Assembly (NCBI GenBank): GCA_005862285.1 | Contig: SZXW01000002.1 | Location: forward strand, 188,849 to 252,848 | DNA length: 64,000 nt | From: Chlorobium sp. | Lineage (GTDB): Bacteria; Bacteroidota; Chlorobiia; Chlorobiales; Chlorobiaceae | Direction of reading: 5' to 3' | In this document: in pieces, positions 17,253 to 53,182 of the stretch | Numbering within the stretch: the first letter of the stretch is position 1 | Layout: each line of letters starts with the position of its first letter | Position numbers and translations under genes: made by a program | Notes under the pieces: generated by a model | Database searches by the model: none | Seen by the model: only the letters and a program-made list of their open reading frames with translations | What the model was told of the DNA's origin: nothing

Positions 17253-18500
17253 ATGCGTATTTTAACGTTTACAGGTAAGGGTGGAGTAGGAAAAACAAGC
17301 GTTTCTGCAGCTACAGCTGTCAGATTGTCTCAGATGGGATATCGTACGCTTGTTTTATCAACAGACCCTGCTCACAGTCTCTCGGATTCTTTTAACCTTC
17401 CTCTCGGTGCAGAACCCACCAAAATCAGGGAAAATCTTCAGGCTATCGAGGTCAATCCTTATGTGGACCTCAAACAGAACTGGCAGTCGGTACAGAAATA
17501 TTACACCAGGATTTTCATGGCCCAGGGAGTATCTGGAATCATGGCAGATGAAATGACTATACTGCCCGGCATGGAAGAGCTTTTTTCACTCCTGAGAATC
17601 AAACGTTACAAGGCATCCGGCTTGTATGATGTTCTTGTTCTCGATACGGCGCCGACCGGCGAAACCCTGAGATTGCTTTCGCTTCCTGATACGCTTTCCT
17701 GGGGCATGAAAGCCGTGAAGAACGTTAATAAATATATTGTCAGACCTCTCAGCAAGCCTCTTTCGAAGATGTCCGACAAAATAGCTAATTTTATCCCACC
17801 TGCGGACGCTATTGATTCTGTCGATCAGGTTTTCGACGAACTTGAAGATATCCGTGAAATTCTCACGGACAATGCCAAATCCACAGTTCGTCTGGTTATG
17901 AACGCCGAGAAGATGTCGATAAAGGAAACCATGCGAGCACTGACGTATCTTAACCTGTACGGGTTCAAAGTTGATATGGTGCTTGTCAACCGTCTGCTTG
18001 ATACAAAGGAAAACAGCGGATATCTGGAACACTGGAAAAGCATCCAGCAGAAATATCTTGGAGAGATAGAAGAGGGATTTTCGCCCCTGCCAGTTAAAAA
18101 GCTCAGGATGTACGAACAGGAAATTGTCGGACTCAAATCACTCGATCAGTTCGCTCACGACATGTACGGTGAAAGCGATCCGTCGGATATGATGTATGAC
18201 GAACCGCCGATCAGGTTTGTACGCAATGGAGATGTCTATGAGGTGCAGATGAAGCTCATGTTTGCCAACCCTGTCGATATCGATGTCTGGGTTACCGGGG
18301 ATGAACTGTTCGTGCAGATAGGAAATCAGCGCAAGATCATTACATTGCCGATAAGCCTGACCGGCCTTGAACCGGGCGATGCCGTTTTCAAGGATAAATG
18401 GCTGCACATTCCGTTCGATCTCGACAAGACCGAGCAAAGCCGCCTGCAGAAGGTGCAGAAGGAGTCACACGAATCAAGGGAACAGAAAGTCTATCAATAG
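17253..18500 (+). CDS. Get3/ArsA-family P-loop ATPase with a C-terminal alpha-crystallin (HSP20)-like domain (paralog 1)
   Basis: 415-aa ORF with the deviant Walker [19 protein letters not shown] and DTAPTGETLRLL. The C-terminal DVYEVQMKL...DIDVWVTGDELFVQIGNQRKIITLPISL...FKDKWLHIPF reads as an ACD-like beta-sandwich. The protein contains no cysteine. Confidence 0.85.
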   Translation: MRILTFTGKGGVGKTSVSAATAVRLSQMGYRTLVLSTDPAHSLSDSFNLPLGAEPTKIRENLQAIEVNPYVDLKQNWQSVQKYYTRIFMAQGVSGIMADEMTILPGMEELFSLLRIKRYKASGLYDVLVLDTAPTGETLRLLSLPDTLSWGMKAVKNVNKYIVRPLSKPLSKMSDKIANFIPPADAIDSVDQVFDELEDIREILTDNAKSTVRLVMNAEKMSIKETMRALTYLNLYGFKVDMVLVNRLLDTKENSGYLEHWKSIQQKYLGEIEEGFSPLPVKKLRMYEQEIVGLKSLDQFAHDMYGESDPSDMMYDEPPIRFVRNGDVYEVQMKLMFANPVDIDVWVTGDELFVQIGNQRKIITLPISLTGLEPGDAVFKDKWLHIPFDLDKTEQSRLQKVQKESHESREQKVYQ

Positions 18501-18635: not shown

Positions 18636-19055
18636 ATGTCGGAATCGTACCAGAATCTGCGCAAGGATTTCAAGGAACTTGAGTTGACAGACCGCCTTAC
18701 GTTTCTTGCTGAAAGCGTTCTCTTGACCGGGCAAAGTGCTGTCGTCAGTGGTTTGAATCTTGCCGGCAGTGTTTTTGATACCGTAACCGGAACTGTAGGG
18801 GCTCTTGTCGATGCATCCGGAGTCGGAAGGATTTTTGGAAGCAGCACCGGTGTTGTCGGCGAGACCATCGATCGGGTAGCCATTACGGTCAAGGATGCCT
18901 CGAGAACAGCTAACGAACTCTATAACAATGCTGTCGAGACTGTGGAAAATGCCGCAGGCAACATGGCGACTGCTGTCGGTGATGCAGGACAGTCTGCATC
19001 AGAAGTAGTCAAGAATTTTGCCGGGTCTTTCCAGAAAAGTCCGGTGAAAAAATAA
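18636..19055 (+). CDS. csmC: Chlorosome envelope protein, CsmC/CsmD family
   Basis: 139-aa Ala/Gly/Val-rich ORF immediately upstream of csmA, matching the csmCA arrangement known from Chlorobaculum tepidum. The assignment rests on position and composition. Confidence 0.72.
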
Positions 19056-19195: not shown

Positions 19196-19438
19196 ATGAG
19201 TGGTGGTGGCGTTTTTACCGATATCCTGGCAGCAGCCGGCCGCATCTTTGAGGTAATGGTTGAAGGTCACTGGGAGACCGTCGGTATGCTGTTTGATTCT
19301 TTAGGCAAAGGCACCATGAGAATCAACCGCAATGCTTATGGCAGCATGGGCGGCGGCGGAAGCCTTCGTGGCGGATCACCAGAAGTAACAGGATATGCTG
19401 TTCCTTCTAAAGAGGTTGCTTCAAAATTTGCAAAATAA
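19196..19438 (+). CDS. csmA: Chlorosome baseplate protein CsmA (BChl a-binding), precursor form
   Basis: The 80-aa [53 protein letters not shown]... is near-identical to remembered CsmA sequences and includes His25. A strong SD (aaggagg) lies 5 nt upstream of the ATG. Confidence 0.95.
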
Positions 19439-19708: not shown

Positions 19709-21544
19709 ATGGCTAATTTATCTTTGTACATATCAGGACAGACTGAAGAGAATGATGTAGCTGAATTTTTCCAGAAAAACCTCATGAGCGCCGGTGAAAA
19801 TCCGATCGCTTTTTTTGACGGGGTTTTTTATGAGTCACATCAGGAACGTGTTGGCAATATTGCTTTTCAGGACTATCTGATCTATTCCGACAAGGCGGTT
19901 TATCTTTGGGCAAGAGGGACGACAAAGGATTATCTCGATCGCTTCGAACTTGGTTCGGTATCCGTTAACAGCCGTAATAAAGATTACGATTTTGCAACCG
20001 TAAATCTGAAGGTTCGCCGTGAAGGCAAGGAACCTGTCTATGTTATTTTTGATATGGTCGAGTTGCGGGAAGCTGATCTGATTGTCAGACTCCATACTGT
20101 TATTGAATCGGTCATTGAACAATATATGGGCCTGAATTATCGGGCAACCCTGCCTGACAATGTGGCCGATATCGTCCTTGAGGAAGCGAGGAGCGTCTGT
20201 ATTCCCCAGTCGATAACACTTCGCCTCGATGCTCCGAATTCTTCACAGCAGCAGGCCAGTATCGGTTATGGTCAGGACCTGCTCGAGCAATACAAGGCTT
20301 CCATCGGTTACGGAGGTAACGAAAGACAGCCGCAACCGCAACAACAGTCGTACCAGAGACCGCAACCTCAGCCTCAACAGCAGTCCGGTTATAATCCGGT
20401 TCCTGCGGCACCCGGCGGTGCACAGTATCCGGAGGGATTTTCTCCAACCGATGTTTTCAAAAAAATTGAAGGCATGCTTCCCGGGGCTGATCCAGGCGCT
20501 CTGAAAAAAGTTGCCGACTCGATCAAGGATATGCTTGGAGAAGTTCCCATGAAGCTCAGGGATCAGTTCGTGAGCGATATGCAGCATGTTCCGGGTATGC
20601 TTTCTGCCCTGAATGAACTTCTTACAAATATTTCCGACAATCCCCAGGCAGAGCGTTTTGTCATGAATATTGTCAAAACAGCCGTCAGGAATGACGGGAT
20701 GATCGGTTCGGTAGGAAAGCTTATCAAGCTCTCTTCCAATTTTGGTTCATCAGGCAAGAAAAAACCAGCTCCTCGTTCTTCGCAGAGACCGGCCTCATCC
20801 GCTTCAGCAGCGTCTGTGCCTCAGAAAGAGAGAGATGACTCCTTCGATGATTTTGACAGTCCTGTAAGGAAAAAGAAAATACAAATAAAAAACGATGCGT
20901 CAGTTCCCGGCAGGGATTTTTTCAGCGACGATCTGATGGCGGATCTGCCTGACAGCGGTTCATTTGCACCGGAAAAGAGCAGACCTTTAGTTGAGGATAT
21001 TGACGATTCAGCAGTCCCGAAACGAAAGAAAATTTCGGTCAAGGCTCCTGAAGCGGATATGTCGCCTCTTATAAAAGACATGATGAGCATGGATGATCCA
21101 GATTCCGGGATGTCCGCTCCTGAACCTGCCGTGATGCCCATGGAAAACGGGCAGACGCAGGTTGCCACAAGAAAAATCAGAATTGTTCCTGAAGTTCCGC
21201 CGGCAGAACTCCCTGAAATCGAAATTTCAGAAGAGGAAATCCTGCAGGCAATGGTTTCCGATATTGATGTTCCGGAATTGCAGGCATTTGAATTTGAAGA
21301 TACGAAGGTTGATTTCCCTGAAGTGGAAGCTTCTGACATGGAAGAAACGGAACCAATGGTAACAGATACACAAAAAGCTGAAACACTAAAGACAGAAGTC
21401 AGACCTTCTGAAAGCGTTGCTGCGGAAAAACCGGAAGTGCAAATTCAAACTGCACCGGTTATGCAGACAAAAAAATCGGATTTTACCGGTAACAGTTCTC
21501 AAAGGAAGAAGTTCAACGCGCCGGGAAAACACGGAAGGCGGTGA
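19709..21544 (+). CDS. Hypothetical 611-aa protein: N-terminal globular domain, PQ-rich linker, helical middle and a long acidic disordered tail
   Basis: The long ORF has consistent coding character and lies between csmA and the second Get3/ArsA-like gene on the same strand. I recognise no family. Confidence 0.7.
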   Translation: MANLSLYISGQTEENDVAEFFQKNLMSAGENPIAFFDGVFYESHQERVGNIAFQDYLIYSDKAVYLWARGTTKDYLDRFELGSVSVNSRNKDYDFATVNLKVRREGKEPVYVIFDMVELREADLIVRLHTVIESVIEQYMGLNYRATLPDNVADIVLEEARSVCIPQSITLRLDAPNSSQQQASIGYGQDLLEQYKASIGYGGNERQPQPQQQSYQRPQPQPQQQSGYNPVPAAPGGAQYPEGFSPTDVFKKIEGMLPGADPGALKKVADSIKDMLGEVPMKLRDQFVSDMQHVPGMLSALNELLTNISDNPQAERFVMNIVKTAVRNDGMIGSVGKLIKLSSNFGSSGKKKPAPRSSQRPASSASAASVPQKERDDSFDDFDSPVRKKKIQIKNDASVPGRDFFSDDLMADLPDSGSFAPEKSRPLVEDIDDSAVPKRKKISVKAPEADMSPLIKDMMSMDDPDSGMSAPEPAVMPMENGQTQVATRKIRIVPEVPPAELPEIEISEEEILQAMVSDIDVPELQAFEFEDTKVDFPEVEASDMEETEPMVTDTQKAETLKTEVRPSESVAAEKPEVQIQTAPVMQTKKSDFTGNSSQRKKFNAPGKHGRR

Positions 21545-21625: not shown

Positions 21626-22780
21626 ATGAGAATTATTCTTTACCTGGGTAAAGGGGGTGTCGGTAAAACCACCGTTTCAGCCTCGACCGCAACATCAATT
21701 GCACGGAGAGGCCAGAGGGTGCTGATCATGAGCACGGATGTGGCTCACAGTCTTGCCGATGCATTCAGCGTTGAGCTTTCATCTACCCCTCTCGAGGTGG
21801 AAAAAAACCTCTTCGCCATGGAGGTCAATGTCCTTGCTGAAATCAGGGAAAACTGGAATGAGCTGTATTCCTATTTCTCTTCGATTCTCATGCATGACGG
21901 CGCAAATGAAATTGTGGCCGAGGAGCTTGCCATCATGCCGGGTATGGAAGAGATGATCAGTCTACGCTATATCTGGAAGGCAGCGAAATCGGGTGATTAT
22001 GATGTTGTCATTGTCGATGCAGCACCGACCGGAGAAACCATGCGCCTGCTCGGCATGCCTGAATCGTATGGCTGGTATTCTGACAAGATTGGCGGCTGGC
22101 ATTCGAAAGCCATTGGTTTTGCCGCTCCGCTCCTGACCAAGTTCATGCCGAAAAAGAATATTTTCAAGCTCATGCCTGAAGTGAACGAGCATATGAAAGA
22201 GCTTCATGCCATGTTGCAGGACAAGAGCATAACCACATTCAGGGTTGTCCTGAACCCCGAGAACATGGTTATCAAGGAAGCTCTCAGGGTACAGACCTAT
22301 CTGAACCTCTTCGGTTACAAGCTCGATGCTGCTATAGTCAACAAGGTCCTGCCGCCGAATTCGACTGACAGTTACCTGCAGAGCCTTATCGATACCCAGG
22401 CAAAATACCTCAGGATCATCGAGAACTGCTTTTATCCGGTTCCTATTTTCCGCGCGCAGCTTTCTACCGAGGAAATTATCAATACTGACAAGCTGGACAA
22501 CCTCAGCAAGCAGATATTCGGTGATAGAAATCCCGCTGAGGTGCTTTTCATCAACGACAAAACACAGGTGCTTGCCAAAGTCGACGGTAAATATGTTTTA
22601 AGCCTTTATCTGCCGAATGTTGAGGTAAAGAAACTGAACGTCAATATAAAAGGCGACGAACTGCTGGTCGATATCAACAATTTCCGCAAGAGCATTATTC
22701 TACCCAATGTGCTTATTGGCCGTAAAACAGAGGGCGCGGATTTTTCAGAGGGTAATCTCAGTATCACATTCTCAAGCTGA
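21626..22780 (+). CDS. Get3/ArsA-family P-loop ATPase with a C-terminal alpha-crystallin (HSP20)-like domain (paralog 2, divergent)
   Basis: 384-aa ORF with [18 protein letters not shown] and [12 protein letters not shown]. The C-terminal [40 protein letters not shown]...GNLSITF is ACD-like. It has a single Cys. Confidence 0.85.
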
Positions 22781-42244: not shown

Positions 42245-43753
42245 TCATGTTTGCGCGGTTGCTTTTTGTGCCTCTTTGAGGTGAAGCTGGCAGACTTTCC
42301 GGAAATGGTGACCATAAATTGCCAGGGTCACGGCAAGCGGAAGGGACTGCTGGCGGTTGAAAAAGGTCCAGATAAGCATTTTCCAGTACTGGTAACGTTC
42401 CCGTCCAATCACACCGAGCAGGACGGCCGAGCGGGCGAATGCCATCAACTGGCTCACTCGGAACCTGCTTTTGAATCGTGGGGCCTGGTACTCACTGAGC
42501 AACGTTTTGATGCGTTGATAGTAGTGTTTTGGTGTATACAGATACTCCATCATCTCCCTGTACCCTTTTTTCAGGATGTCCGGGTCCATTTTCGGAATGA
42601 TGTTGGTGTTGCTGTCTGCATTGTCACCGCTCGAATTATGCAGCAGCCGACCTTCTTTCTTCATGCGTTCGTAAAGCCTTGTACCGGGAAGCGCCTGAAG
42701 AATGCCTACCATAGCCGTCACGATGCCGCTGTTCTGGATAAATTCGATCTGTTTCTGGAAGATCGAGTTTGTATCGGAGTCGAAACCGACGATGAACCCT
42801 CCCTGGACTTCTATTCCTGCCTGCTGGATTTTCCTGATATTCTCGAGCATGTTCCTCGAAGTGTTGTGCTGTTTACCGCATGCCTGAAGTGCAGTCTCGT
42901 CAGGAGTTTCGATGCCGATGAAAACCTGGGTGAAACCGGCCTGAGCCATGAGGCTCATAAGCTCGGGATCATCGGCAAGGTTGATCGAACATTCCGTATA
43001 GAGCTTTGTTGTCGTCTTGTTGCCTTTCTGCCATTCGATCAGCTTCGGAAGCAGTACTTTTTTCAGGTATGATTTGTGGGCTATGAAATTGTCATCGACA
43101 AAAAAGATGCTGTCCTTCCAGCCGAGTTTGCGTAGAGCGTCAAGTTCGCCTATAATCTGGTCACCGGATTTTGTACGGATTTTATGGCCGAGCATTGCCG
43201 TCACATTGCAGAAATCGCACTTGTAGGGACAACCTCTTGAAAACTGCACAGCCATCGAGGCATATTTGTGTATATCGAGAAGATGCCAATGTGGCGCAGG
43301 AGTGAGGCAGAGATCAGGAAACTGCTCTGTAGAGTAACATTTCTGCAGCGATCCGTTCTCAAGATCTTCAAGGAAAGGCCGGAGCGTAAGTTCTGCTTCG
43401 TTCAGCACGAAATGGTCCACGGAGGGGAAGGCTTCATGTTCTGTGGTAAAAAGAGGGCCTCCGGCAATGACCTTCAGTCCGGCCTGATTGCATTGAGCTA
43501 TCACCTTGCGCGCGGAATCCTGCTGAACGGTCATCGCGCTTATCCAGGCCATATCGGCCCAATCGATATCCTTCTGATCAAGTTTAACGACATTGAGGTC
43601 GATCAGTCTGCGTTCCCAGCTTTCGGGGAGCATGGCCGCTACGGTCAGCAGGCCGAGGGGCGGGAGCGAAGCTTTTTTGTTGACGAATTTAAGGGCATGC
43701 TTGAAACTCCAGAACGTGTCGGGGAATTCAGGATAGATAAGAAGGATTTTCAT
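42245..43753 (-). CDS. B12-binding radical SAM protein (class B, BchE/HpnP-like, with a C-terminal DUF4070-like region)
   Basis: The N-terminus MKILLIYPEF...PPLGLL is a B12-binding domain, and the radical SAM cluster motif is CPYKCDFC. The ORF track start at 43774 is 7 codons upstream. Confidence 0.85.
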   Translation of the reverse strand: MKILLIYPEFPDTFWSFKHALKFVNKKASLPPLGLLTVAAMLPESWERRLIDLNVVKLDQKDIDWADMAWISAMTVQQDSARKVIAQCNQAGLKVIAGGPLFTTEHEAFPSVDHFVLNEAELTLRPFLEDLENGSLQKCYSTEQFPDLCLTPAPHWHLLDIHKYASMAVQFSRGCPYKCDFCNVTAMLGHKIRTKSGDQIIGELDALRKLGWKDSIFFVDDNFIAHKSYLKKVLLPKLIEWQKGNKTTTKLYTECSINLADDPELMSLMAQAGFTQVFIGIETPDETALQACGKQHNTSRNMLENIRKIQQAGIEVQGGFIVGFDSDTNSIFQKQIEFIQNSGIVTAMVGILQALPGTRLYERMKKEGRLLHNSSGDNADSNTNIIPKMDPDILKKGYREMMEYLYTPKHYYQRIKTLLSEYQAPRFKSRFRVSQLMAFARSAVLLGVIGRERYQYWKMLIWTFFNRQQSLPLAVTLAIYGHHFRKVCQLHLKEAQKATAQT

Positions 43754-43932
43754 CGTATCGTAGCCTCCGGGCAATAACAGCTTTTCATTGAAAATGGGTG
43801 GAAAATCAGATTAAGAAATGATTTTATATTGTCTTGATTAAACGCCTGAAGATTCGTTCAAAGTTCCATAAGGAATTATTGCTCCGGCAACAATAAGTCG
43901 CAGGGAGATCCATCCAAAGGAGCTGTTATTCA

Positions 43933-44075
43933 GCAATGAAGCGTAGCGGAATGAAGAATCCATTTTATTACTATACCGCATTACCCCGGGTCTGCACCCG
44001 GGGCTACCGATATGTCATCCCTACGGGATTGAAGATGGTACCTGGGGATTGGGGAGTCCTCAGTCCTCAGCACTG
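43933..44075. repeat. Composite intergenic repeat: a GAATGAAGAATCC-family arm plus an inverted copy of the 4616-4700 unit, abutting the lptB stop codon
   Basis: It has gcgtagcggaatgaagaatcc (43941-43961), then the hairpin ccccggg-tctgca-cccgggg, gctacc, atccctacggga, and cctcagtcctcagcact ending 3 nt from the lptB stop. Confidence 0.6.
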
Positions 44076-45054: not shown

Positions 45055-45138
45055 GAAAGCGTAGCGAAGAATCCGGATGTTTTTGTTTTACAAGAAGATG
45101 GATTCTTCATTCCGCTCTGCTTCATTGCGGAATGACAG
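45055..45138. repeat. Inverted-repeat element of the CGAAGAATCC / GGATTCTTC family
   Basis: The left arm is gaaagcgtagcgaagaatcc and the right arm is ggattcttcattccgctctgcttcattgcggaatgaca. The right arm is the near-exact reverse complement of 43941-43961. Confidence 0.55.
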
Positions 45139-45177
45139 ATTCGTTGCATGGATTTATTATTGCCGGAGCAATAAAGC

Positions 45178-45215
45178 ACAAAAGGCGGCCGGTCAGGAGA
45201 GACAGGCCGCCTTTT
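45178..45215 (-). terminator. Rho-independent terminator after bchU
   Basis: On the minus strand the stem aaaggcggcc / ggccgccttt is followed by T-rich ttgtgctttatt. Confidence 0.75.
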
Positions 45216-45232
45216 ACAGCTGTTACTGAGGA

Positions 45233-46252
45233 TCAGCCCTGTTTTACCGCTTCGCACAGGAGGTGTTCGTATCTCCTTACGATACGGACATTGGTGAAGC
45301 CGATCGATTCGAGGATCGGTTTGTAGGCGTCCTGCTGCTTGAAGCCGAGCACGCTGAACGGCATGCCTGCGCCGAGAATATAATGGCTGAGGTAGTCGAA
45401 GTTCGGTTTCTTTTCATCGTCGATGATCATGTCGAGGATGAGCACCTTGCCTCCGGCCGGAAGGGCATCGTAGGCTTTTTTGCACATCATGGCGGTAAGC
45501 TGTTCGTTTGCCGAATAGAGGATACGGCAGAACATGACGGCATCGGCCTGGGGATAGACATCTTTGTAGATATCGACCGCGGTGCCCCTGAGGCGGTTGC
45601 CGAGCCCTTTTTCAGCTGCGTTTTCGTTCACCAGTTCAATGGCTCCTGGCAGGTTCAGGATCGTTGAATCGAGCTGGGGATATTTTTTCAGCAGTGCGGC
45701 GGAAATATCACCGATTCCGCCTCCGACGTCGACAAGGGTTTTTGCATTTTCCAGTTCGGTTTCTTCGAGGAGAAGCTTGATGGCGAAGTATGCATTGCTG
45801 CGGTGAATTTCCTCGAAATACCAGTTGTCCTCGCGCGTTACGGGAGGATAGGGGACTTCGCCCTTGAAGTTCAGCGTGCCCCTTACGGCGCTGGCCATAT
45901 CCATGTAGAAATTGTCCGCGAGGTGGGCCATGGCTTTAGCCACCGGGGTCATATAGACGTTCGGGCGGTCCTTGTCCGGAATGAACATGTTTTTCGCGAA
46001 GGGGCTGAGGTCCCATTTGCCTTCTGCCTGCACGGTGATTCCGATCTGGCGGAGTGCTTCGAGAAGCATGCCGAGCCTTGGAGGGACTGCACCGGCAGCG
46101 GCTGCAAGGGCTGCCGTCTCTTTCGGTCCGTCGGCAAAGTGGTTGAAAAGGTCGAGGTCGAGGGCGGCTTTCAGACAGCCGAACTCGACAAGCCCTTTGA
46201 ATATGAGTTCGTTGGCCCTGTCGGTTTGCTGAAGCAACTCAATGTCATTCAT
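45233..46252 (-). CDS. bchU: Bacteriochlorophyllide c C-20 methyltransferase
   Basis: The 339-aa ORF is collinear and highly similar to the remembered Cba. tepidum BchU: ANELIFKGL, VPYPPVTREDN.YFEEIHRSNA, VGGGIGDISAA, STILNLPGAI.LVNENAAEKG, FCRILYSANEQL, NFDYLSHYILGAGMPFSVLGFK. Confidence 0.93.
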   Translation of the reverse strand: MNDIELLQQTDRANELIFKGLVEFGCLKAALDLDLFNHFADGPKETAALAAAAGAVPPRLGMLLEALRQIGITVQAEGKWDLSPFAKNMFIPDKDRPNVYMTPVAKAMAHLADNFYMDMASAVRGTLNFKGEVPYPPVTREDNWYFEEIHRSNAYFAIKLLLEETELENAKTLVDVGGGIGDISAALLKKYPQLDSTILNLPGAIELVNENAAEKGLGNRLRGTAVDIYKDVYPQADAVMFCRILYSANEQLTAMMCKKAYDALPAGGKVLILDMIIDDEKKPNFDYLSHYILGAGMPFSVLGFKQQDAYKPILESIGFTNVRIVRRYEHLLCEAVKQG

Positions 46253-46298
46253 GGTACAAGATTGGTTTTCGGATTTAAAGAAAATGGTGCGGTTTTAA

Positions 46299-47681
46299 TC
46301 ACAGATTGTGCTCCTTCCGGAAAATTTCAAGCTCTACACGGATATTCTTGCGGAACGCCATGCTGGTGATGAGATTGAGCAGCTTGTATGGGTTTCTTCT
46401 TACCCTGTTGGCAATGTTCTTGAGCGAGTAGGCTTTATAGTACGTTTTCATGAACTTGTACTGGAACTGGACCGGGTCGTATTTTTCCGAGCGGATGACA
46501 AGGTTCAGTGCGTTGTACCTGTCCCAGTCCTCGTCGGTGATGAGCCCCTTCGCCTTGTACTCCCAGTACATCGATGTGCCCGGGTAGGGTGTGATGATCT
46601 GGAAGATCGGCATGAAGACGGCGTTGCGGGCAACGAAATCGACCAGGTTGTCCATGTCCTCGAAAGTGTCGAGCGCCGGGTTGAACAGGAAATTTCCCTG
46701 GATATTCAGTCCTGCCTGTCGGCACTCCTCGATGAGGCGCGAGTACTTTTCGGCCGAGTTGACATGACCTTTATTGTATGCTTCCAGCGTCTTCTGGTTG
46801 ATGGACTCGAAGCCGACAAGCACCATGATGCAGCCTGAATCGACCAGCTTCTTCACGGTCTCCTTGTCCTCGAGGAAGTTGATGCTGAAGAAGACGCTGT
46901 AGTTGATATCGCACTCCTTGATGAGGTCGAGCGTGTCCCATAACCGTTTCTTGCTCACACCGAGGTTTTCATCGCAGAGCATGAACCACGGTTTCGAGGA
47001 TTTGCCAGTCGGCTTGAAGAATGCTTTTTTGGCTGCCAGGATCTGCTTCCTCAGTTCATCAGGCTTCTGGGCGCGGTAGAGTTTGCCGGTGAAGTTCGGC
47101 GTGACGCAGAACGAGCAGTCGAACGGACATCCCCTGGTGACATAGATGGGAATGGCCCTGGTGCCGTCGACTTTTTCGCGTTTCGACGCTTTGGCGATCC
47201 TTGCATAGTCGATAGGAGTGATTTCCTTGACAGGCGGGAAATCCTTCGAGTCGTAGAGAGGCTTGAGACGGCCGACGGCTGCGTCCTCGAGCACGGTCTT
47301 CCAGAGGTTGTCGGCTTCGCCGCAGACGAGACAGTCGGCATGGGGCCTGGCTTCTTCGGTGTTGAAGGAGACATGCAGTCCGCCGAGGATGACTTTTTTG
47401 CCTTTTTTTCGGAAGTCGTCGGCTATATCGTAAGCCCTCTTGGCATCGATGGTGCGGGAAGTGATGCAGACAAGGTCGTAATCACCGTCGTAATTGATGG
47501 CATCGTCGAAATGCTCGTCGACGATTTCAATGTGGTGGTGTTCCGGGGTGAGGCTCACAAGCACCCCGATAGCCATATTGAACAGCGGTTTCTGGTTTGA
47601 TTTCGAATCCTTGTTTCCCATCGGAGCGATGAGCAGCAGCTTGAGTGGCCTGTTTGCGCCTGGTAATTCGGGGTTACTCAT
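46299..47681 (-). CDS. B12-binding radical SAM protein, BchQ/BchR-like (BChl c C-8(2)/C-12(1) methyltransferase family), copy A
   Basis: 460-aa ORF with an N-terminal B12-binding region and the radical SAM motif CPFDCSFC. It lies 46 nt upstream of bchU on the same strand. By eye it is roughly 85-90% identical to copy B. Confidence 0.82.
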
Positions 47682-47820
47682 GTTGTTTCGACCGGTGTTG
47701 AACGCTCGGTTTTACAGATTGCCTGATCGTTTTATCCTTATCTGATGTTTCGTTGATTGCCTGATTGCAGGAACGGCACAATGTTGTGAAATACCGTACG
47801 ATGCATCAAGATCGAATGCG

Positions 47821-49059
47821 CTAATCAGAATAGTTGTTATTCAGCACTTTATTGTTCTCTTTTTCAAGCAGACTCTGTTTGTGGTTGTTAAGATCAAAAG
47901 GTATATGGAGCCATTTGCCTTTAAACACTGCATCGCCTGGTTCCAGGCCGGTCAGGCTTATCGGCAGTGTAATGATCTTGCGCTGATTGCCTATCTGTAC
48001 GAACAGCTCGTCGCCTGTAACCCATATATCGATATCTACCGGGTTGGCAAACATCAGTTTCATTTGAACTTCATAAATATCACCCTGCCGGACGAATTTG
48101 ATGGGCGGTTCGTCATACATCATATCGGATGGATCGGTATCGCCGTAAATATCATGTGCGAACCGTTCCAAAGCTTTCAGTCCGACGATTTCCTTCTCAT
48201 ACATTCTCAGTTTTGCAACCGGCAGCGGCGCAAAGCCTTCTTCTATTTCACCAAGGTATTTCTGCTGGATCGATTTCCATTTTTCAAGGTAACCGCTGTT
48301 TTCCTTTGTATCGAGAAGGCGGTTGACGAGCACCATATCGACCTGGAAGCCGTACAGGTTCAGGTAGGTAAGAGCCCGCATGGTTTCCTTTATCGACATT
48401 TTCTCGGCATTCATGACCAGCCGCACGGTAGATTTTTTCGTATCCGTAAGAATTTCCCGGATGCCTTCCAGCTCATCGAAAACGTGGTCGACAGAATCGA
48501 TCGCTTCTTCCGGTGGAATATAGAAGGCAATTTTGTCGGACATTTTCGACAGGGGTTTGCTGAGAGGCCTGACAATATATTTTGTGACGTTTTTAACGGC
48601 CTTCATGCCCCATGACAAGGTGTCCGGAAGTGAGAGCAATCTGAGCGTTTCACCTGTTGGCGCGGTATCGAGCACCAGCGCATCATAACTCCCGGCAGCT
48701 TTGTAGCGTTTGATCCTCAGCAGGGAAAAAAGCTCTTCCATGCCCGGCAGGATGGTCATTTCATCAGCTACTACGCCGGAAACGCCCTGTGCCATGAAAA
48801 TCCTCGTGTAGTACTTCTGAACAGACTGCCAGTTGTTTTTAAGGTCAACGTAAGGGTTTACCTCGATTGCATGGAGATTTTCCCTGATCCTGGTTGGTTC
48901 CGCCCCCAGAGGCAGATTGTATGAATCCGAGAGACTATGGGCAGGATCGGTTGAAAGAACGAGCGTACGATATCCCATTTCCGACAAGCGGACAGCTGTA
49001 GCAGCAGATACGCTGGTTTTGCCTACTCCGCCTTTACCTGTGAATGTTAAAATACGCAT
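47821..49059 (-). CDS. Get3/ArsA-family P-loop ATPase with a C-terminal alpha-crystallin-like domain (paralog 3, close paralog of 17253-18500)
   Basis: 412-aa ORF with [30 protein letters not shown] and the ACD-like C-terminus DIYEVQMKL...DIDIWVTGDELFVQIGNQRKIITLPISL. It has no cysteine and is about 90% identical to paralog 1 by eye. Confidence 0.85.
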   Translation of the reverse strand: MRILTFTGKGGVGKTSVSAATAVRLSEMGYRTLVLSTDPAHSLSDSYNLPLGAEPTRIRENLHAIEVNPYVDLKNNWQSVQKYYTRIFMAQGVSGVVADEMTILPGMEELFSLLRIKRYKAAGSYDALVLDTAPTGETLRLLSLPDTLSWGMKAVKNVTKYIVRPLSKPLSKMSDKIAFYIPPEEAIDSVDHVFDELEGIREILTDTKKSTVRLVMNAEKMSIKETMRALTYLNLYGFQVDMVLVNRLLDTKENSGYLEKWKSIQQKYLGEIEEGFAPLPVAKLRMYEKEIVGLKALERFAHDIYGDTDPSDMMYDEPPIKFVRQGDIYEVQMKLMFANPVDIDIWVTGDELFVQIGNQRKIITLPISLTGLEPGDAVFKGKWLHIPFDLNNHKQSLLEKENNKVLNNNYSD

Positions 49060-49287
49060 GACGCCGACTTTGATATTTTAAGGCAATAAGGAAAAATCTA
49101 TGAACTGAAAAGATAACATTTTGAGCGTAAGTAGCAATGGACAGGAAAATATACAGGTTGAAACTATATTTGCAAGATGTGAAATTGCGGATAAGAAGGC
49201 GATACCTGTCATGAACGGATAGAGCCGGTCAGATTAATTTGCCCGGCTTGTATCTGAGCCTGTTGTACCAGACAGGGAAAATGTACG

Positions 49288-49410
49288 TCACTGCTGCTTT
49301 TTCGAGGATGATTTTCCGATGAATTTATTCAGTAGCATGACGATGAAGATGCCCGAGACAAAGAAAATCACTGGTGCATAAATGGTCGTATATTTGGCAA
49401 ATTCCGGCAT
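49288..49410 (-). CDS. Candidate 40-aa single-TM small protein (unsupported beyond the ORF and hydrophobicity)
   Basis: My translation is MPEFAKYTTIYAPVIFFVSGIFIVMLLNKFIGKSSSKKQQ: one hydrophobic helix and a Lys/Ser-rich tail. It is on the same strand as the flanking radical SAM and Get3-like genes. It is below the ORF-track cutoff and has no clear SD. Confidence 0.25.
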   Translation of the reverse strand: MPEFAKYTTIYAPVIFFVSGIFIVMLLNKFIGKSSSKKQQ

Positions 49411-49489
49411 TGATGGTTTGTGTTTGATGGTTGACGAGTAATTGAAATATTTGGTTATTTGTAATGGCCCTTTTTCGAGCCTGTAAAGT

Positions 49490-50872
49490 TTACAGATTGT
49501 GCTCCTTCCTGAAGGTGCCGAGCTGTTCGCGTATATTTCTGCGGAACGCTATGCTGGTGATGAGGTTGAGCATTTTGTAGGGATTCTTTCTAACCCTGTT
49601 GGCAATGTTCTTCAGTGAATAAGCCTTGTAATAACTTTTCATGAACTTGTACTGGAACTCTATCGGATCGTATTTTTCTGAACGGATGACCAGATTTGTA
49701 GCATTGTATCTGTCCCAGTTCTCGTCGGTAATGAGTCCTTTCTCCTTGTACTCCCAGTACATCGATGTGCCTGGATAGGGCGTGATAATCTGGAATATAG
49801 GCATGAATACATTATTTTTGCTGACAAAGTCGACCAGGTTGTCCATGTCTTCGAAGGTATCGAGCGCTGGGTTGAAGAGGAAGTTCCCCTGGACGTTCAG
49901 ACCTGCCTGACGGCACTCCTCGATGAGGCGTGAAAACTTCTCGGCCGAGTTCACATGCCCTTTGTTGTAGGCTTCAAGCGTGCGCTGGTTGATGGACTCG
50001 AAGCCCACGAGCACCATGAGGCAGCCGGAATCGACCAGTTTCCTGACCGTATCCTTGTCTTCGAGGAAATTGCTGCTGAAAAAGACGCTGTAGTTTATGT
50101 TGCACTCCTTTATGAGGTCGAGCGTCTCCCACAGCCGTTTTTTGCTAACGCCGAGATTTTCGTCGCACAGCATGAACCATGGTTTCGAGGATTTTCCGTG
50201 CGGCTTGAAGAATGCTTTTTTCGCGGCTTCGATCTGCTTCTTAAGATCATCCGGCTTCTGGGCTCGGTAGAGTTTGCCGGTGAAATTCGGTGTGACGCAG
50301 AAGGAACAGTCGAACGGGCATCCTCTGGTGACATAGATGGGAATGGACTTGGTGCCGTCGACCTTTTCGCGTTTCGATGCTTTGGCGATTCTTGCGTAAT
50401 CGATAGGGACGATTTCCGTGACTGGAGGGAAATCCTTCGAGTTGTAAAGCGGCTTGAGCCGGTTGTTCGCTGCATCCTCGAGCACGGTCTGCCAGAGGTT
50501 CTCGGCTTCGCCGCAGACGATGCAGTCGGCGTGGGGCCTTGCTTCTTCGGTATTGAAGGAGACGTGCAGTCCGCCGAGGATGACCTTCTTTCCTTTTTTG
50601 CGGAAGGCATCGGCGATTTCGTAACCTCTTTTAGCATCGATGGTGCGGGAAGTAATACCAACAAAGTCGTAATCGCCGTCGTAATTGATGGTATCGCCGA
50701 AATGCTCATCGGCGATTTCGATGTGGTGCTGTTCAGGAGTGAGGCTGACCAGTACTCCTATCGCCATGTTGAACAGCGGCTTCTGGTTTGTTTTCGAATC
50801 CTTTTTTCCCTTCGGAGCGATGAAGAGCAGTTTGAGAGGCCTTGTTGCGCCTGGTGATCCGTGGTTACTCAT
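49490..50872 (-). CDS. B12-binding radical SAM protein, BchQ/BchR-like, copy B
   Basis: The 460-aa ORF has the same motifs as copy A (CPFDCSFC) and is collinear with it over the full length. Confidence 0.82.
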
Positions 50873-51314
50873 GTTCTTTCGACCAGTATGGGATGCCCGA
50901 TTTTACAGATTTTCTGATCGTTTTATCATTGTCTCGCGGCTTCGTCTATCATAGTCGGGAAGTAATTCGATTACAGATTTTCCTACACAGAAATTTATCG
51001 GGAAGAAGCTGTGAATTCAACCTGACTGTACAGCAATGTAAAAATTATTGTTTTAAAACGAGACCATTTTAACGGTTTTTGAACTGGGATTTTCGTTTTA
51101 TCATCAGTGGCTTGTCTCTTGAAAAAGTGGGCGGTGAAAGAATGGTGGCATGGATTAACAGTGAAAACAGAGATAAAAAAATCATATGTTCTCTAAAACG
51201 ATATCTGTCATGGCCATGCTTATCCGGACATTTCGGGACGGCCCGCTCCGGGTATCCTGATTCCGGCGGCAGGTGTATTCCGGACTCTCGCAACATTAAT
51301 TACATGATGAACGT

Positions 51315-51827: not shown

Positions 51828-51979
51828 TAATCGTTTTGGAGGTGGGCGTTTTACTTGGGCACGACCAATATTTTCGCCGTTGTTTTTTTATATTTTTCTA
51901 AATTGTTAAAGGATCGGTTGGCTCTTAATACTTGTTATATGATGTAAAATATGTTATTCCAAGATTTATCAGAAATGTT

Positions 51980-53182
51980 ATGAGTTCCATAATGCAAAAC
52001 GATGTTGTTGTCGTAGGCGGCGGGATCAGCGGCCTCAGCTTGGCTTATTACTCTGTTAAGGCCGGTATGAAGACAACGCTTATTGAAAAGGACGATTCAA
52101 CCGGCGGTTCTTTCTCTTCCCCCCGTCATCGCGTCGGTGGCCGCGAGTTCTGGCTCGAACTGGGGGCCCATACCTGTTACAGTTCCTACAAGAACCTGCT
52201 TGACATTGTTGAAGGTTGCGGCCTTATTGATGCAATCACACCCCGTGCCAAGGTGCCTTTTTCACTTTACAAGGATGGAGAGGTCAAATCGCTGGTTTCC
52301 AGTCTCAATATTGCTGAATTGCTTCTCTCCGCACCAAAAATTTTCTCCCTGAAGAAAAGCGGTTTGAGCGTGAAGGACTATTATTCAAAGATAGTCGGGC
52401 ATAAAAACTACAATGAAATCATCAGCCATTTTTTCAATGCCGTTCCTTCGCAGGTGACCGATGATTTCCCTGCCGACTTGATGTTCAAGAGCCGGGAAAA
52501 GAGAAAGGATGTTCTGAAGAATTACACTTTTGCGGAAGGGTTACAGAGCATTGCAAAGGCAATTTCAGCATCCAGGGGACTTAATGTTTTTACCAGCAGA
52601 GAGGTTGTTTCGATTCAGGAGGAAAACGGAAAGTATATCGTTATTACCTCTGATGGTACAACATATGCTTCAAAAGTTCTCGCTCTTGCAGTTCCGTCGT
52701 CCGTGGCTTCCAGGCTTCTGGGGACTGTCAAACCTGCGATAGCAGAGCATCTCGGTCTTCTCGGTGCGGCAACTGTTGATTCAGTAGGCGTCGTTATCAG
52801 AAAGGAGAACCTTGATCTGAAGCCGGTTGCTGCGCTTATATCTCCAAACGACCTCTTTTTTTCGGCAGTTTCTCTCGATACTGTACCCCATGACAATTTC
52901 CGGGGGTTTGCATTCCATTTCCGACCCGGTTTCGACCACAATACGAAAATGACCCGTATCTGTGAGGTACTGAGAATAGCTCCGTCAAAGATCGAGAAGA
53001 CATTTACCCGGATCAATACGGTACCTTCTCTTTGTCTCGGACACCACGAGTGGCTTGAAAAAACCGATACCTTGCTGAAGGGGCAGAAAAACCTGCTTTT
53101 GACCGGCAATTATTTCGGCGGTATGGCTATCGAGGATTGTGTGTCACGTTCCAAAAGTGAGTTCAGCAGGGTAAGCCTGTAG
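51980..53182 (+). CDS. FAD-dependent oxidoreductase (protoporphyrinogen oxidase/amine oxidase-like fold)
   Basis: The dinucleotide-binding motif VVVVGGGISGLSLAY lies just after the ATG at 51980. The ORF track starts at 51932. The substrate is not assignable. Confidence 0.7.
   Translation: MSSIMQNDVVVVGGGISGLSLAYYSVKAGMKTTLIEKDDSTGGSFSSPRHRVGGREFWLELGAHTCYSSYKNLLDIVEGCGLIDAITPRAKVPFSLYKDGEVKSLVSSLNIAELLLSAPKIFSLKKSGLSVKDYYSKIVGHKNYNEIISHFFNAVPSQVTDDFPADLMFKSREKRKDVLKNYTFAEGLQSIAKAISASRGLNVFTSREVVSIQEENGKYIVITSDGTTYASKVLALAVPSSVASRLLGTVKPAIAEHLGLLGAATVDSVGVVIRKENLDLKPVAALISPNDLFFSAVSLDTVPHDNFRGFAFHFRPGFDHNTKMTRICEVLRIAPSKIEKTFTRINTVPSLCLGHHEWLEKTDTLLKGQKNLLLTGNYFGGMAIEDCVSRSKSEFSRVSL

Follow-up and report, generated by a model that had tools for sequence, protein, structure and literature searches.

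Two bchQ genes and a Get3d-type ATPase gene in a bacteriochlorophyll c tailoring locus of Chlorobium

Why should an ATPase of the Get3/ArsA type be encoded between two closely similar radical S-adenosylmethionine (SAM) genes, next to a gene for the methylation of bacteriochlorophyll (BChl) c, and which enzymes do the two radical SAM genes specify? The question is raised by a locus in a Chlorobium sp. metagenome-assembled genome (MAG), analysed here within a stretch of 64,000 nt of contig SZXW01000002.1 (hereafter, the window; L001, L002, etc. label the compared loci and P0061, etc. the compared proteins). The surroundings in the window are those of a typical green sulfur bacterial chromosome, including bchH, gatA, sucD, recA, tig, and hydrogenase genes. 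A first-pass annotation had described the locus as a BChl c tailoring cluster in which bchU and two near-identical BchQ/BchR-like genes are interrupted by the ATPase gene. Sequence comparison established it as a five-gene, same-strand unit for BChl c side-chain tailoring, predicted to read bchQ (copy B), a micro-protein gene (TM40), a Get3d-type ATPase gene, bchQ (copy A), and bchU, with a terminator at its end.

The tailoring unit and the identity of its radical SAM genes

All five open reading frames (ORFs) were found on the minus strand, in the order and at the coordinates given by the first-pass annotation. The unit begins with copy B of bchQ (49490-50872; rSAM-B, 460 amino acids (aa), TLU88309), a class B, i.e., B12-binding, radical SAM gene preceded by a 62-nt leader (50873-50934). 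The 430-bp spacer between copy B and the ATPase gene holds, as had been noticed, a 40-aa ORF, TM40 (49288-49410), predicted to encode a single-pass membrane micro-protein. The genes for the ATPase (47821-49059; 412 aa, TLU88308), copy A of bchQ (46299-47681; rSAM-A, 460 aa, with its own 62-nt leader at 47682-47743), and bchU (45233-46252; 339 aa, TLU88306.1) follow. The intergenic gaps along the unit are 79, 228, 139, and 46 nt, and the proteins of the cluster are TLU88306-TLU88309 in the source MAG. The last gene, named BchU by NCBI, encodes the bacteriochlorophyllide C-20 methyltransferase: it matches the BchU equivalog TIGR02716 over the full model length with 485.4 bits (cutoff 276.1).

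The terminator reported after bchU was confirmed as an intrinsic one (45169-45216, minus strand). Its GC-rich stem of 12 bp (45216-45179) begins 16 nt past the bchU stop and leads into a U-run; the 81-nt fold reaches -37.2 kcal/mol (z = -4.2), and none of 200 shuffled sequences was equally stable. A consensus terminator scan missed this hairpin because its loop exceeds 8 nt. It is the sole strong terminator-like hairpin within or after the five-gene stretch.

The two radical SAM proteins align without gaps and share 403 of 460 residues (88%), well within the 85-90% estimated earlier by eye. At the DNA level, the identity is only 84.3% and the longest identical run is 28 nt, so the designation "near-identical" suits the proteins and somewhat overstates the likeness of the genes. 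Both carry CPFDCSFC at residues 185-192, an instance of the radical SAM CxxxCxxC motif, and match PF04055 (Radical_SAM) with 50-52 bits; the B12-binding domain PF02310 scored 26.5 and 29.9 bits, below its cutoff of 32.1, yet it is included in the precomputed domain list of that protein.

Several lines of evidence identify the pair as BchQ. The JGI name of the close homologues is bacteriochlorophyllide d C-8(2)-methyltransferase, and the 90%-identity cluster of copy B has members that JGI designates C-8(2)/C8 methyltransferase. Copy A is ~70% identical over its full length to protein P0061 of C. tepidum, which maps to AE006470.1 1,683,528-1,684,949, adjoining a BchF-family gene and near a RuBisCO-like protein (1.68 Mb, TLS genome). 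This place at 1.68 Mb beside bchV, distant from the expected position of CT1320, we take to be that of CT1777, i.e., bchQ. In a neighbor-joining (NJ) tree, both copies nest in the clade rooted on C. tepidum BchQ; in terms of the phylogenetic check that had been proposed, the pair falls inside BchQ. When 1.8 billion representatives clustered at 50% identity were searched, the BchQ family came back as one cluster at 57% identity, the next matches being at or below 37%; hence, BchQ appears to be without a close sister family. Its sole PDB match was AprD4 (E 2.8e-6). Taken together, these comparisons show both rSAM-A and rSAM-B to be co-orthologues of C. tepidum BchQ (CT1777), as far as orthology can be read from sequence, and along with the bchU match they bear out the assignment of the locus to BChl c tailoring. 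BchQ methylates BChl at C-8(2), adding up to three methyl groups, and such methylations tune the absorbance of the pigment aggregates (PMC7242693).

BchR, for which JGI gives the name C-12(1)/C12 methyltransferase, comprises proteins of 466-469 aa that are only 29-31% identical to the pair; neither copy belongs to this family, which is a tight one of its own (76-90% identical across Chlorobiaceae). It was recognised as a neighbour gene in related Chlorobium loci and by cluster names, not via the search of representatives. The assemblies that contain L003 (99% identical to copy A) and L002 have bchR as well, on contigs different from those of these two loci, so the lineage has two bchQ genes together with bchR and bchU. 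The duplication was one of two options offered by the first-pass annotation, the other being a bchQ/bchR pair, and it is the former that stood.

A third B12-type radical SAM gene of the window (42245-43774, with a DUF4070 C-terminal domain) was considered as a candidate bchR and rejected: it belongs to a generic family named YgiQ-like by JGI, conserved across Chlorobiaceae and ~63% identical in MAGs of non-phototrophs, e.g., Anaerolineae. Elsewhere, a B12-radical SAM protein of 608-643 aa, ~26% identical to BchQ and ~25% to BchR, is encoded directly 3' of bchU in several Chlorobium species (L009, 12698-14524; also L011, L016, L018, and L042). Two distinct BchR-family proteins, P0560 and P0594, are attributed to one genome of Prosthecochloris sp. 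GSB1; thus, duplication of tailoring radical SAM genes may also affect bchR in another genus.

History of the bchQ duplication

With each GTDB species represented by one genome, a scan gave 60 Chlorobiaceae bchQ loci. The double-copy arrangement is common to the window and four of the compared loci (L001, L002, L003, and L051), i.e., to five genomes of a small freshwater Chlorobium clade, and both copies are intact in each of the five. The NJ tree, built from 56 BchQ sequences, places all ten copies of these genomes in one clade with 100% bootstrap support, nested in Chlorobium. The duplicated unit spans 1,443 nt and comprises the coding sequence and the 62-nt leader upstream of the ATG (blastn of 50934-49492 against 47743-46301, 84.3% nucleotide identity); conservation of the leader is confined to these ten copies. 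Synonymous divergence (dS) between the copies amounts to 0.6-0.84, and dS to the single-copy orthologues is saturated. The ratio of nonsynonymous to synonymous divergence (dN/dS) of the pair is 0.08 at a dS of ~0.8, indicative of strong purifying selection on both copies.

The copies fall into two types. A-type proteins are 95-99% identical across species and 86-88% identical to B-type ones. Where 46 single-copy BchQ sequences are conserved to 80% or more, the A-type has fixed ten derived substitutions (K21M, K23N, G59D, I118L, E124D, K175R, S176A, E449V, Q450E, and T453I) and the B-type none; the B-type is the closer one to 44 of the 46 single-copy outgroups. Copy A of the window is therewith a derived paralogue and copy B is ancestral-like. 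The position in the unit does not follow the type: L001 and L002 have the opposite order to the window, with the A-type gene upstream and the B-type gene adjoining bchU. A conversion tract (dS 0.12) has homogenised the central two-thirds of the L051 copies and left their N- and C-termini type-specific. These patterns show, on the evidence of the aligned genes, that the two bchQ copies occasionally recombine with each other.

Comparison of the window with L003 (JAAXXY010000001.1) revealed a similar unevenness: dS is 0.07 between the A copies and 0.54 between the B copies, and the proteins of bchU, copy A, the ATPase gene, and TM40 are 99-100% identical, that of copy B is 93% identical, and that of the neighbouring protoporphyrinogen oxidase (PPO)-like gene 76%. 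The jump in divergence at the boundary of TM40 and copy B suggests a breakpoint of between-strain recombination near TM40. No bchQ pseudogene remnants were found beside TM40 in the single-copy loci, and because of this it is the tree, the leader, and dS that speak to the order of events (gain in this clade vs. loss elsewhere). By these signs, the duplication, placed in the ancestor of the small freshwater clade, is old, retained, functionally constrained, and diverging, neither recent nor neutral. None of the papers mentioning bchQ together with duplication, judged by title and abstract, concerned pigment tailoring in green sulfur bacteria.

It was also observed that seven or eight MAG contigs (L046, L047, L049, L050, L054, L056, and L057, and possibly L053) break off within bchQ, immediately past the Get3d gene; additional bchQ duplications or variation at the strain level could be concealed by these assembly breaks.

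The Get3d-type ATPase, its neighbourhoods, and TM40

The ATPase matches PF02374 over residues 1-305 (382 bits) and PF17886 (ArsA_HSP20) over residues 327-388 (66.8 bits), and it is a member of the TRC40/GET3/ArsA subfamily TIGR00345 (279.7 bits, cutoff 135). Its deviant Walker A, switch I, and switch II are intact, and the DTAPTG and DTAPTGETLRLL motifs are present. The protein contains no cysteine, and therefore lacks both the metalloid site of ArsA and the CXXC zinc-binding dimerisation motif of Get3. With the ArsA equivalog TIGR04291, which stands for two fused halves with metalloid cysteines, it scored 114.7 bits (cutoff 650), and with the cyanobacterial NosAFP equivalog NF050088, 139.2 bits (cutoff 325). 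The best PDB matches were archaeal and algal Get3 homologues (archaeal 3zq6, E 7e-53); NosGet3d (E 2e-25) and AtGet3d (E 7e-16) matched more weakly. An AlphaFold model built from a three-sequence alignment had a pLDDT (predicted local distance difference test score) of 48 and was not usable. The combination of a Get3 fold with a C-terminal alpha-crystallin domain and without CXXC is the architecture of Get3d; hence, the protein is shown by its sequence features to be a cysteine-free ATPase of the Get3d type, catalytically intact as judged by its motifs. Get3d proteins of green sulfur bacteria possess the alpha-crystallin domain and conserved catalytic loops and occur in multiple copies, five of them in C. 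chlorochromatii, and those of plants and Nostoc display ATPase activity, bind tail-anchored proteins, and form a hydrophobic chamber with a lipid-like density (PMC10248533).

The presence of Get3d next to bchQ is not a peculiarity of this MAG. Of the single-copy Chlorobiaceae loci, 38 had flanks of sufficient length on both sides, and the order Get3d, bchQ, bchU was found in 16 of these (including C. ferrooxidans and a C. chlorochromatii MAG); two had Get3d only, one had bchU only, and 19 had neither. The same module is present in the four double-copy loci and in the window. It occurs in at least five different upstream and at least seven different downstream contexts, none of them common to the window; bchR adjoins it in five loci, in two of which (L008 and L060) the order is bchR, Get3d, bchQ, bchU. 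The recurrence of the arrangement had been set as a test of the initial proposal, and the possibility that it is unique to this strain fails. What had to be revised is the notion that the ATPase gene interrupts the cluster: the three-gene module is the conserved core and the extra upstream bchQ is its unusual part. Comparative evidence thus shows the ATPase gene to be a conserved upstream partner of bchQ-bchU in one Chlorobium clade, to which an additional bchQ copy has been joined.

Other arrangements exist. L022 has a BchF-family gene interposed between TM40 and bchU. In L087 (2632-8913), a deep-branching, Chloroherpeton-like MAG of the Chlorobiales type, one strand carries genes for a bchU-like O-methyltransferase and a UbiA-family prenyltransferase (possibly BChl c synthase) together with a bchQ-like gene and another B12-radical SAM gene, with no Get3d. 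Together with the C. tepidum arrangement (see below), they indicate that tailoring genes cluster in several ways and that the linkage to the ATPase gene is specific to one Chlorobium clade.

The ATPase is, as had been noted, the third of its family in the window; the other two genes embrace the chlorosome genes csmC and csmA on the plus strand. Paralogue 1 (17253-18500), a member of the 90%-identity cluster of Swiss-Prot Q46465, is directly upstream of csmC (18636-19055; chlorosome envelope protein, PF11098, 204 bits) and csmA (19196-19438; chlorosome baseplate protein, PF02043, 113 bits). A low-complexity, Pro/Gln/Ser-rich ORF of 611 aa (19709-21544; no match in Pfam or NCBIfam) separates csmA from paralogue 2 (21626-22780), which closes the block. 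Paralogue 1 is 87% identical to paralogue 3, the ATPase linked to bchQ, and at least 90% conserved across genera; paralogue 2 is 35-36% identical to either. The whole block is common to three genera, represented by the window, Cba. parvum (L084), and P. luteolum (L085), and in the latter two it has pyrK-like and folK-folB-nadC genes on its flanks. There, syntenic ORFs without a Pfam match (527 and 751 aa) hold the position of the 611-aa ORF. An NJ tree intended to split the csmCA-linked from the bchQ-linked paralogues did not resolve them (backbone support <40%).

The micro-protein TM40 is, by comparative evidence, a real, conserved gene. It has 41 orthologues of 38-41 aa with the core YTTxxAPxxFxxxGxxIVxxLNKFIGK, a nonsynonymous-to-synonymous polymorphism ratio (pN/pS) of 0.22, and a variability of 0.16/0.07/0.45 at the three codon positions (the third ~six times the second). 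The protein consists of one hydrophobic span and a basic C-terminal tail; no match was found in Pfam, NCBIfam, or PDB, and JGI calls it hypothetical. The accessions of rSAM-B and the ATPase are consecutive (TLU88309 and TLU88308), and TM40 is therefore apparently unannotated by NCBI. The gene nearly always follows bchQ directly or lies no farther than 1-3 kb from the Get3d-bchQ-bchU module; in 18 of the 19 loci without linkage to the ATPase gene and bchU, it is directly 3' of bchQ. In the window, the two common types appear to be combined, bchQ-TM40 preceding Get3d-bchQ-bchU. The idea that TM40 is a small reaction-centre subunit was dropped after comparison with PDB chains gave no match.

Outside the unit, a flavin amine-oxidase-type (PPO-like) gene (51932-53182) is divergent from the cluster and scores 92 bits with the protoporphyrinogen oxidase model TIGR00562 (cutoff 97.85); it occurs together with an MscS-like gene ~9 kb from bchQ in three further species (L028, L030, and L044). 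A 62-nt inverted repeat with 84% complementarity (43908-43969 and 45092-45153) has one arm in each of the intergenic regions around lptB and looks like a dispersed intergenic repeat element. An Rfam scan of 43.5-52 kb yielded no significant match and no cobalamin riboswitch.

Possible function and comparison with known systems

The explanation that we favour, with a confidence somewhat better than even, is that the locus represents a tailoring unit in which the bchQ in-paralogues encode differing isoenzymes and the Get3d-type ATPase serves as a holdase or targeting factor. The two BchQ isoenzymes would most likely differ in processivity or substrate preference and could shift BChl c toward more heavily or more variably methylated homologues suited to low-light growth. 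The ATPase would act in an ATP-driven manner where BChl c is finished and handed over to the chlorosome, its candidate hydrophobic clients being a Csm-type envelope protein, TM40, or the pigment itself. A functional link of the ATPase to chlorosome or pigment assembly is plausible, its only basis being the gene neighbourhood. The first-pass annotation had gone further, seeing in this setting independent support for a chlorosome-related role of the ATPase family: the 87%-identical paralogue beside csmC-csmA adds weight to that view, and it is tempered by the nature of the argument (guilt by association) and by the confinement of the bchQ linkage to one Chlorobium clade.

A number of observations weigh against the favoured explanation. 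The Get3d-bchQ linkage is absent in 19 of the 38 judged loci, those of Prosthecochloris, Chlorobaculum, and C. phaeovibrioides/luteolum, as well as in Chloroherpeton-like genomes. Get3d is universal in cyanobacteria, organisms without chlorosomes (PMC10248533); therefore, specificity for chlorosomes is not a property of the whole family. The restricted range of the linkage and the cyanobacterial Get3d proteins together weaken the coupling of the ATPase to pigment assembly. The 228-nt and 139-nt gaps on either side of the ATPase gene hold promoter-like matches, so its independent transcription is possible, and the basic C-terminal tail of TM40, as predicted from its sequence, argues against a classical tail-anchored topology. 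As to the isoenzymes, the rate asymmetry of the A-type is modest (Tajima relative-rate test, median p 0.08) and would also fit a relaxation of constraint if one copy is redundant. The bchR gene of the window's own MAG was not located among the BchR clusters, being seen only for the two sister assemblies.

How else may the pair of radical SAM genes be understood? A bchQ/bchR pair acting at C-8(2) and C-12(1) would be a natural reading, since both are B12-type radical SAM methyltransferases of one pathway (PMC7242693) and since BchR fills the slot of copy B in L008 and L060. Nevertheless, it is refuted at the level of orthology and is very improbable: the copies are 88% identical mutually and ~30% identical to the family that JGI names the C-12(1) methyltransferase, both are monophyletic inside BchQ, and sister genomes (L003 and L002) have a separate bchR elsewhere. 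A more serious contender, albeit one we regard as unlikely, is redundancy or dosage, i.e., two enzymes doing the same job and diverging neutrally. Similar purifying selection on both copies would suit it, as would the L051 conversion, which homogenised most of the gene without loss, and the fact that the type sitting beside bchU is not conserved. Against it stand the 95-99% identity of the A-type across species, compared with 86-88% to the B-type, the ten A-specific as opposed to zero B-specific fixed changes at conserved sites, the persistence of type-specific N- and C-termini even in the converted L051 pair, and the retention of the pair over a dS of ~0.8.

Similarly, the ATPase could be a general housekeeping chaperone or targeting factor of membrane proteins, its proximity to bchQ and bchU being inherited synteny without coupling. 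This view accommodates the facts that half of the Chlorobiaceae loci and the deeper lineages lack the linkage, that all cyanobacteria possess Get3d (PMC10248533), and that promoter-like sites are present in the gaps around the gene; we likewise regard it as unlikely, for the module persists in at least five to seven different genomic contexts, five loci add bchR to it, three genera have the closest paralogue fixed beside csmCA, and the unit has no internal terminator. A specialised service to the adjoining enzymes, namely the loading of Fe-S clusters or cobalamin into B12-radical SAM proteins, comes to mind as well: the ATPase gene is directly upstream of a B12-radical SAM gene in at least 21 loci, sometimes between two of them, and NTPases of the SIMIBI class serve the assembly of metallocentres of metalloenzymes, a precedent that speaks for such a role. 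The protein has, however, zero cysteines and so no obvious ligands for a cluster or metal, its 87%-identical paralogue adjoins csmCA and not a radical SAM gene, and its best matches are targeting factors of the Get3 type, which makes a maturation factor improbable. The public annotation "arsenic-transporting ATPase" (NCBI and JGI names, along with the Pfam ArsA_ATPase match) would imply arsenite efflux. This can be dismissed almost entirely, since the protein, 412 aa long, comprises one ATPase unit followed by a C-terminal HSP20 domain, lacks cysteines, scores 115 bits against the TIGR04291 cutoff of 650, and has no arsB or arsD among its annotated neighbours.

A bolder version of the favoured explanation, which we hold to be rather doubtful as a joint claim, regards the Get3d paralogues of green sulfur bacteria as dedicated, ATP-driven chaperones of chlorosome biogenesis and the second BchQ as a derived enzyme reshaping the mix of homologues. 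Two Get3d proteins would then belong to the csmC-csmA genes that they bracket, and the third would travel with bchQ/bchU, sometimes with bchR, and with TM40; Csm envelope proteins, TM40, or finished BChl c might be carried by them from the cytoplasmic membrane to the nascent chlorosome. The searchable literature contained no paper mentioning both chlorosome and Get3.

Such a lead bears on the assembly of chlorosomes, in particular on how the envelope proteins and the BChl c molecules, numbering hundreds of thousands, enter this lipid-monolayer organelle. It bears equally on the physiological role of the Get3d family, which is conserved from green sulfur bacteria to chloroplasts. The association of Get3d with csmCA in three genera and with bchQ-bchU in ~20 Chlorobium species, through many rearrangements, amounts to a genetic hypothesis that can be tested in C. 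tepidum. The second bchQ, retained and asymmetrically diverged, represents a natural experiment in the tuning of side-chain methylation, antenna absorbance, and low-light fitness in stratified lakes.

Among the known systems, the nearest to the radical SAM pair is BchQ (CT1777) of C. tepidum, with ~70% full-length identity, the same CxxxCxxC and B12-binding architecture, and the same 50%-identity cluster. C. tepidum has a single gene, whereas the window has two diverged copies, each with a duplicated leader; moreover, C. tepidum bchQ adjoins a BchF-family gene (bchV) and recX and, unlike the window, has no ATPase gene, bchU, or TM40 nearby. BchR (the CT1320 family) belongs to the same enzyme class and pathway and in some Chlorobium to the same neighbourhood (bchR-Get3d-bchQ-bchU), but it is a separate family with ~30% identity to the pair, and no bchR is present within the window. 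TokK and ThnK, B12-radical SAM enzymes that methylate sequentially, provide a functional parallel, as one enzyme adds several methyl groups to build a side chain, which BchQ does at C-8(2); no close sequence relationship between them and BchQ is detectable.

As for the ATPase, it resembles Get3d (AtGet3d and Nostoc All4481; PMC10248533) in the Get3/ArsA fold with a C-terminal alpha-crystallin domain, the lack of the CXXC zinc motif, and the multi-copy occurrence in green sulfur bacteria. It differs from AtGet3d and All4481 in being closer in sequence to archaeal Get3 and below the NosAFP cutoff, with its catalytic loops intact, and also in its setting among pigment and chlorosome genes; that paper discusses no such setting and makes no mention of chlorosomes. 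The block known from Chlorobiaceae in which "ArsA" genes (Swiss-Prot Q46465) flank csmC-csmA recurs in the window, and the third ATPase, 87% identical to the first of that block, differs from it in being linked to bchQ/bchU instead of csm genes. Overall, the cluster is a variation on known systems and of moderate interest, chiefly as a testable lead on the function of Get3d and on chlorosome biogenesis.

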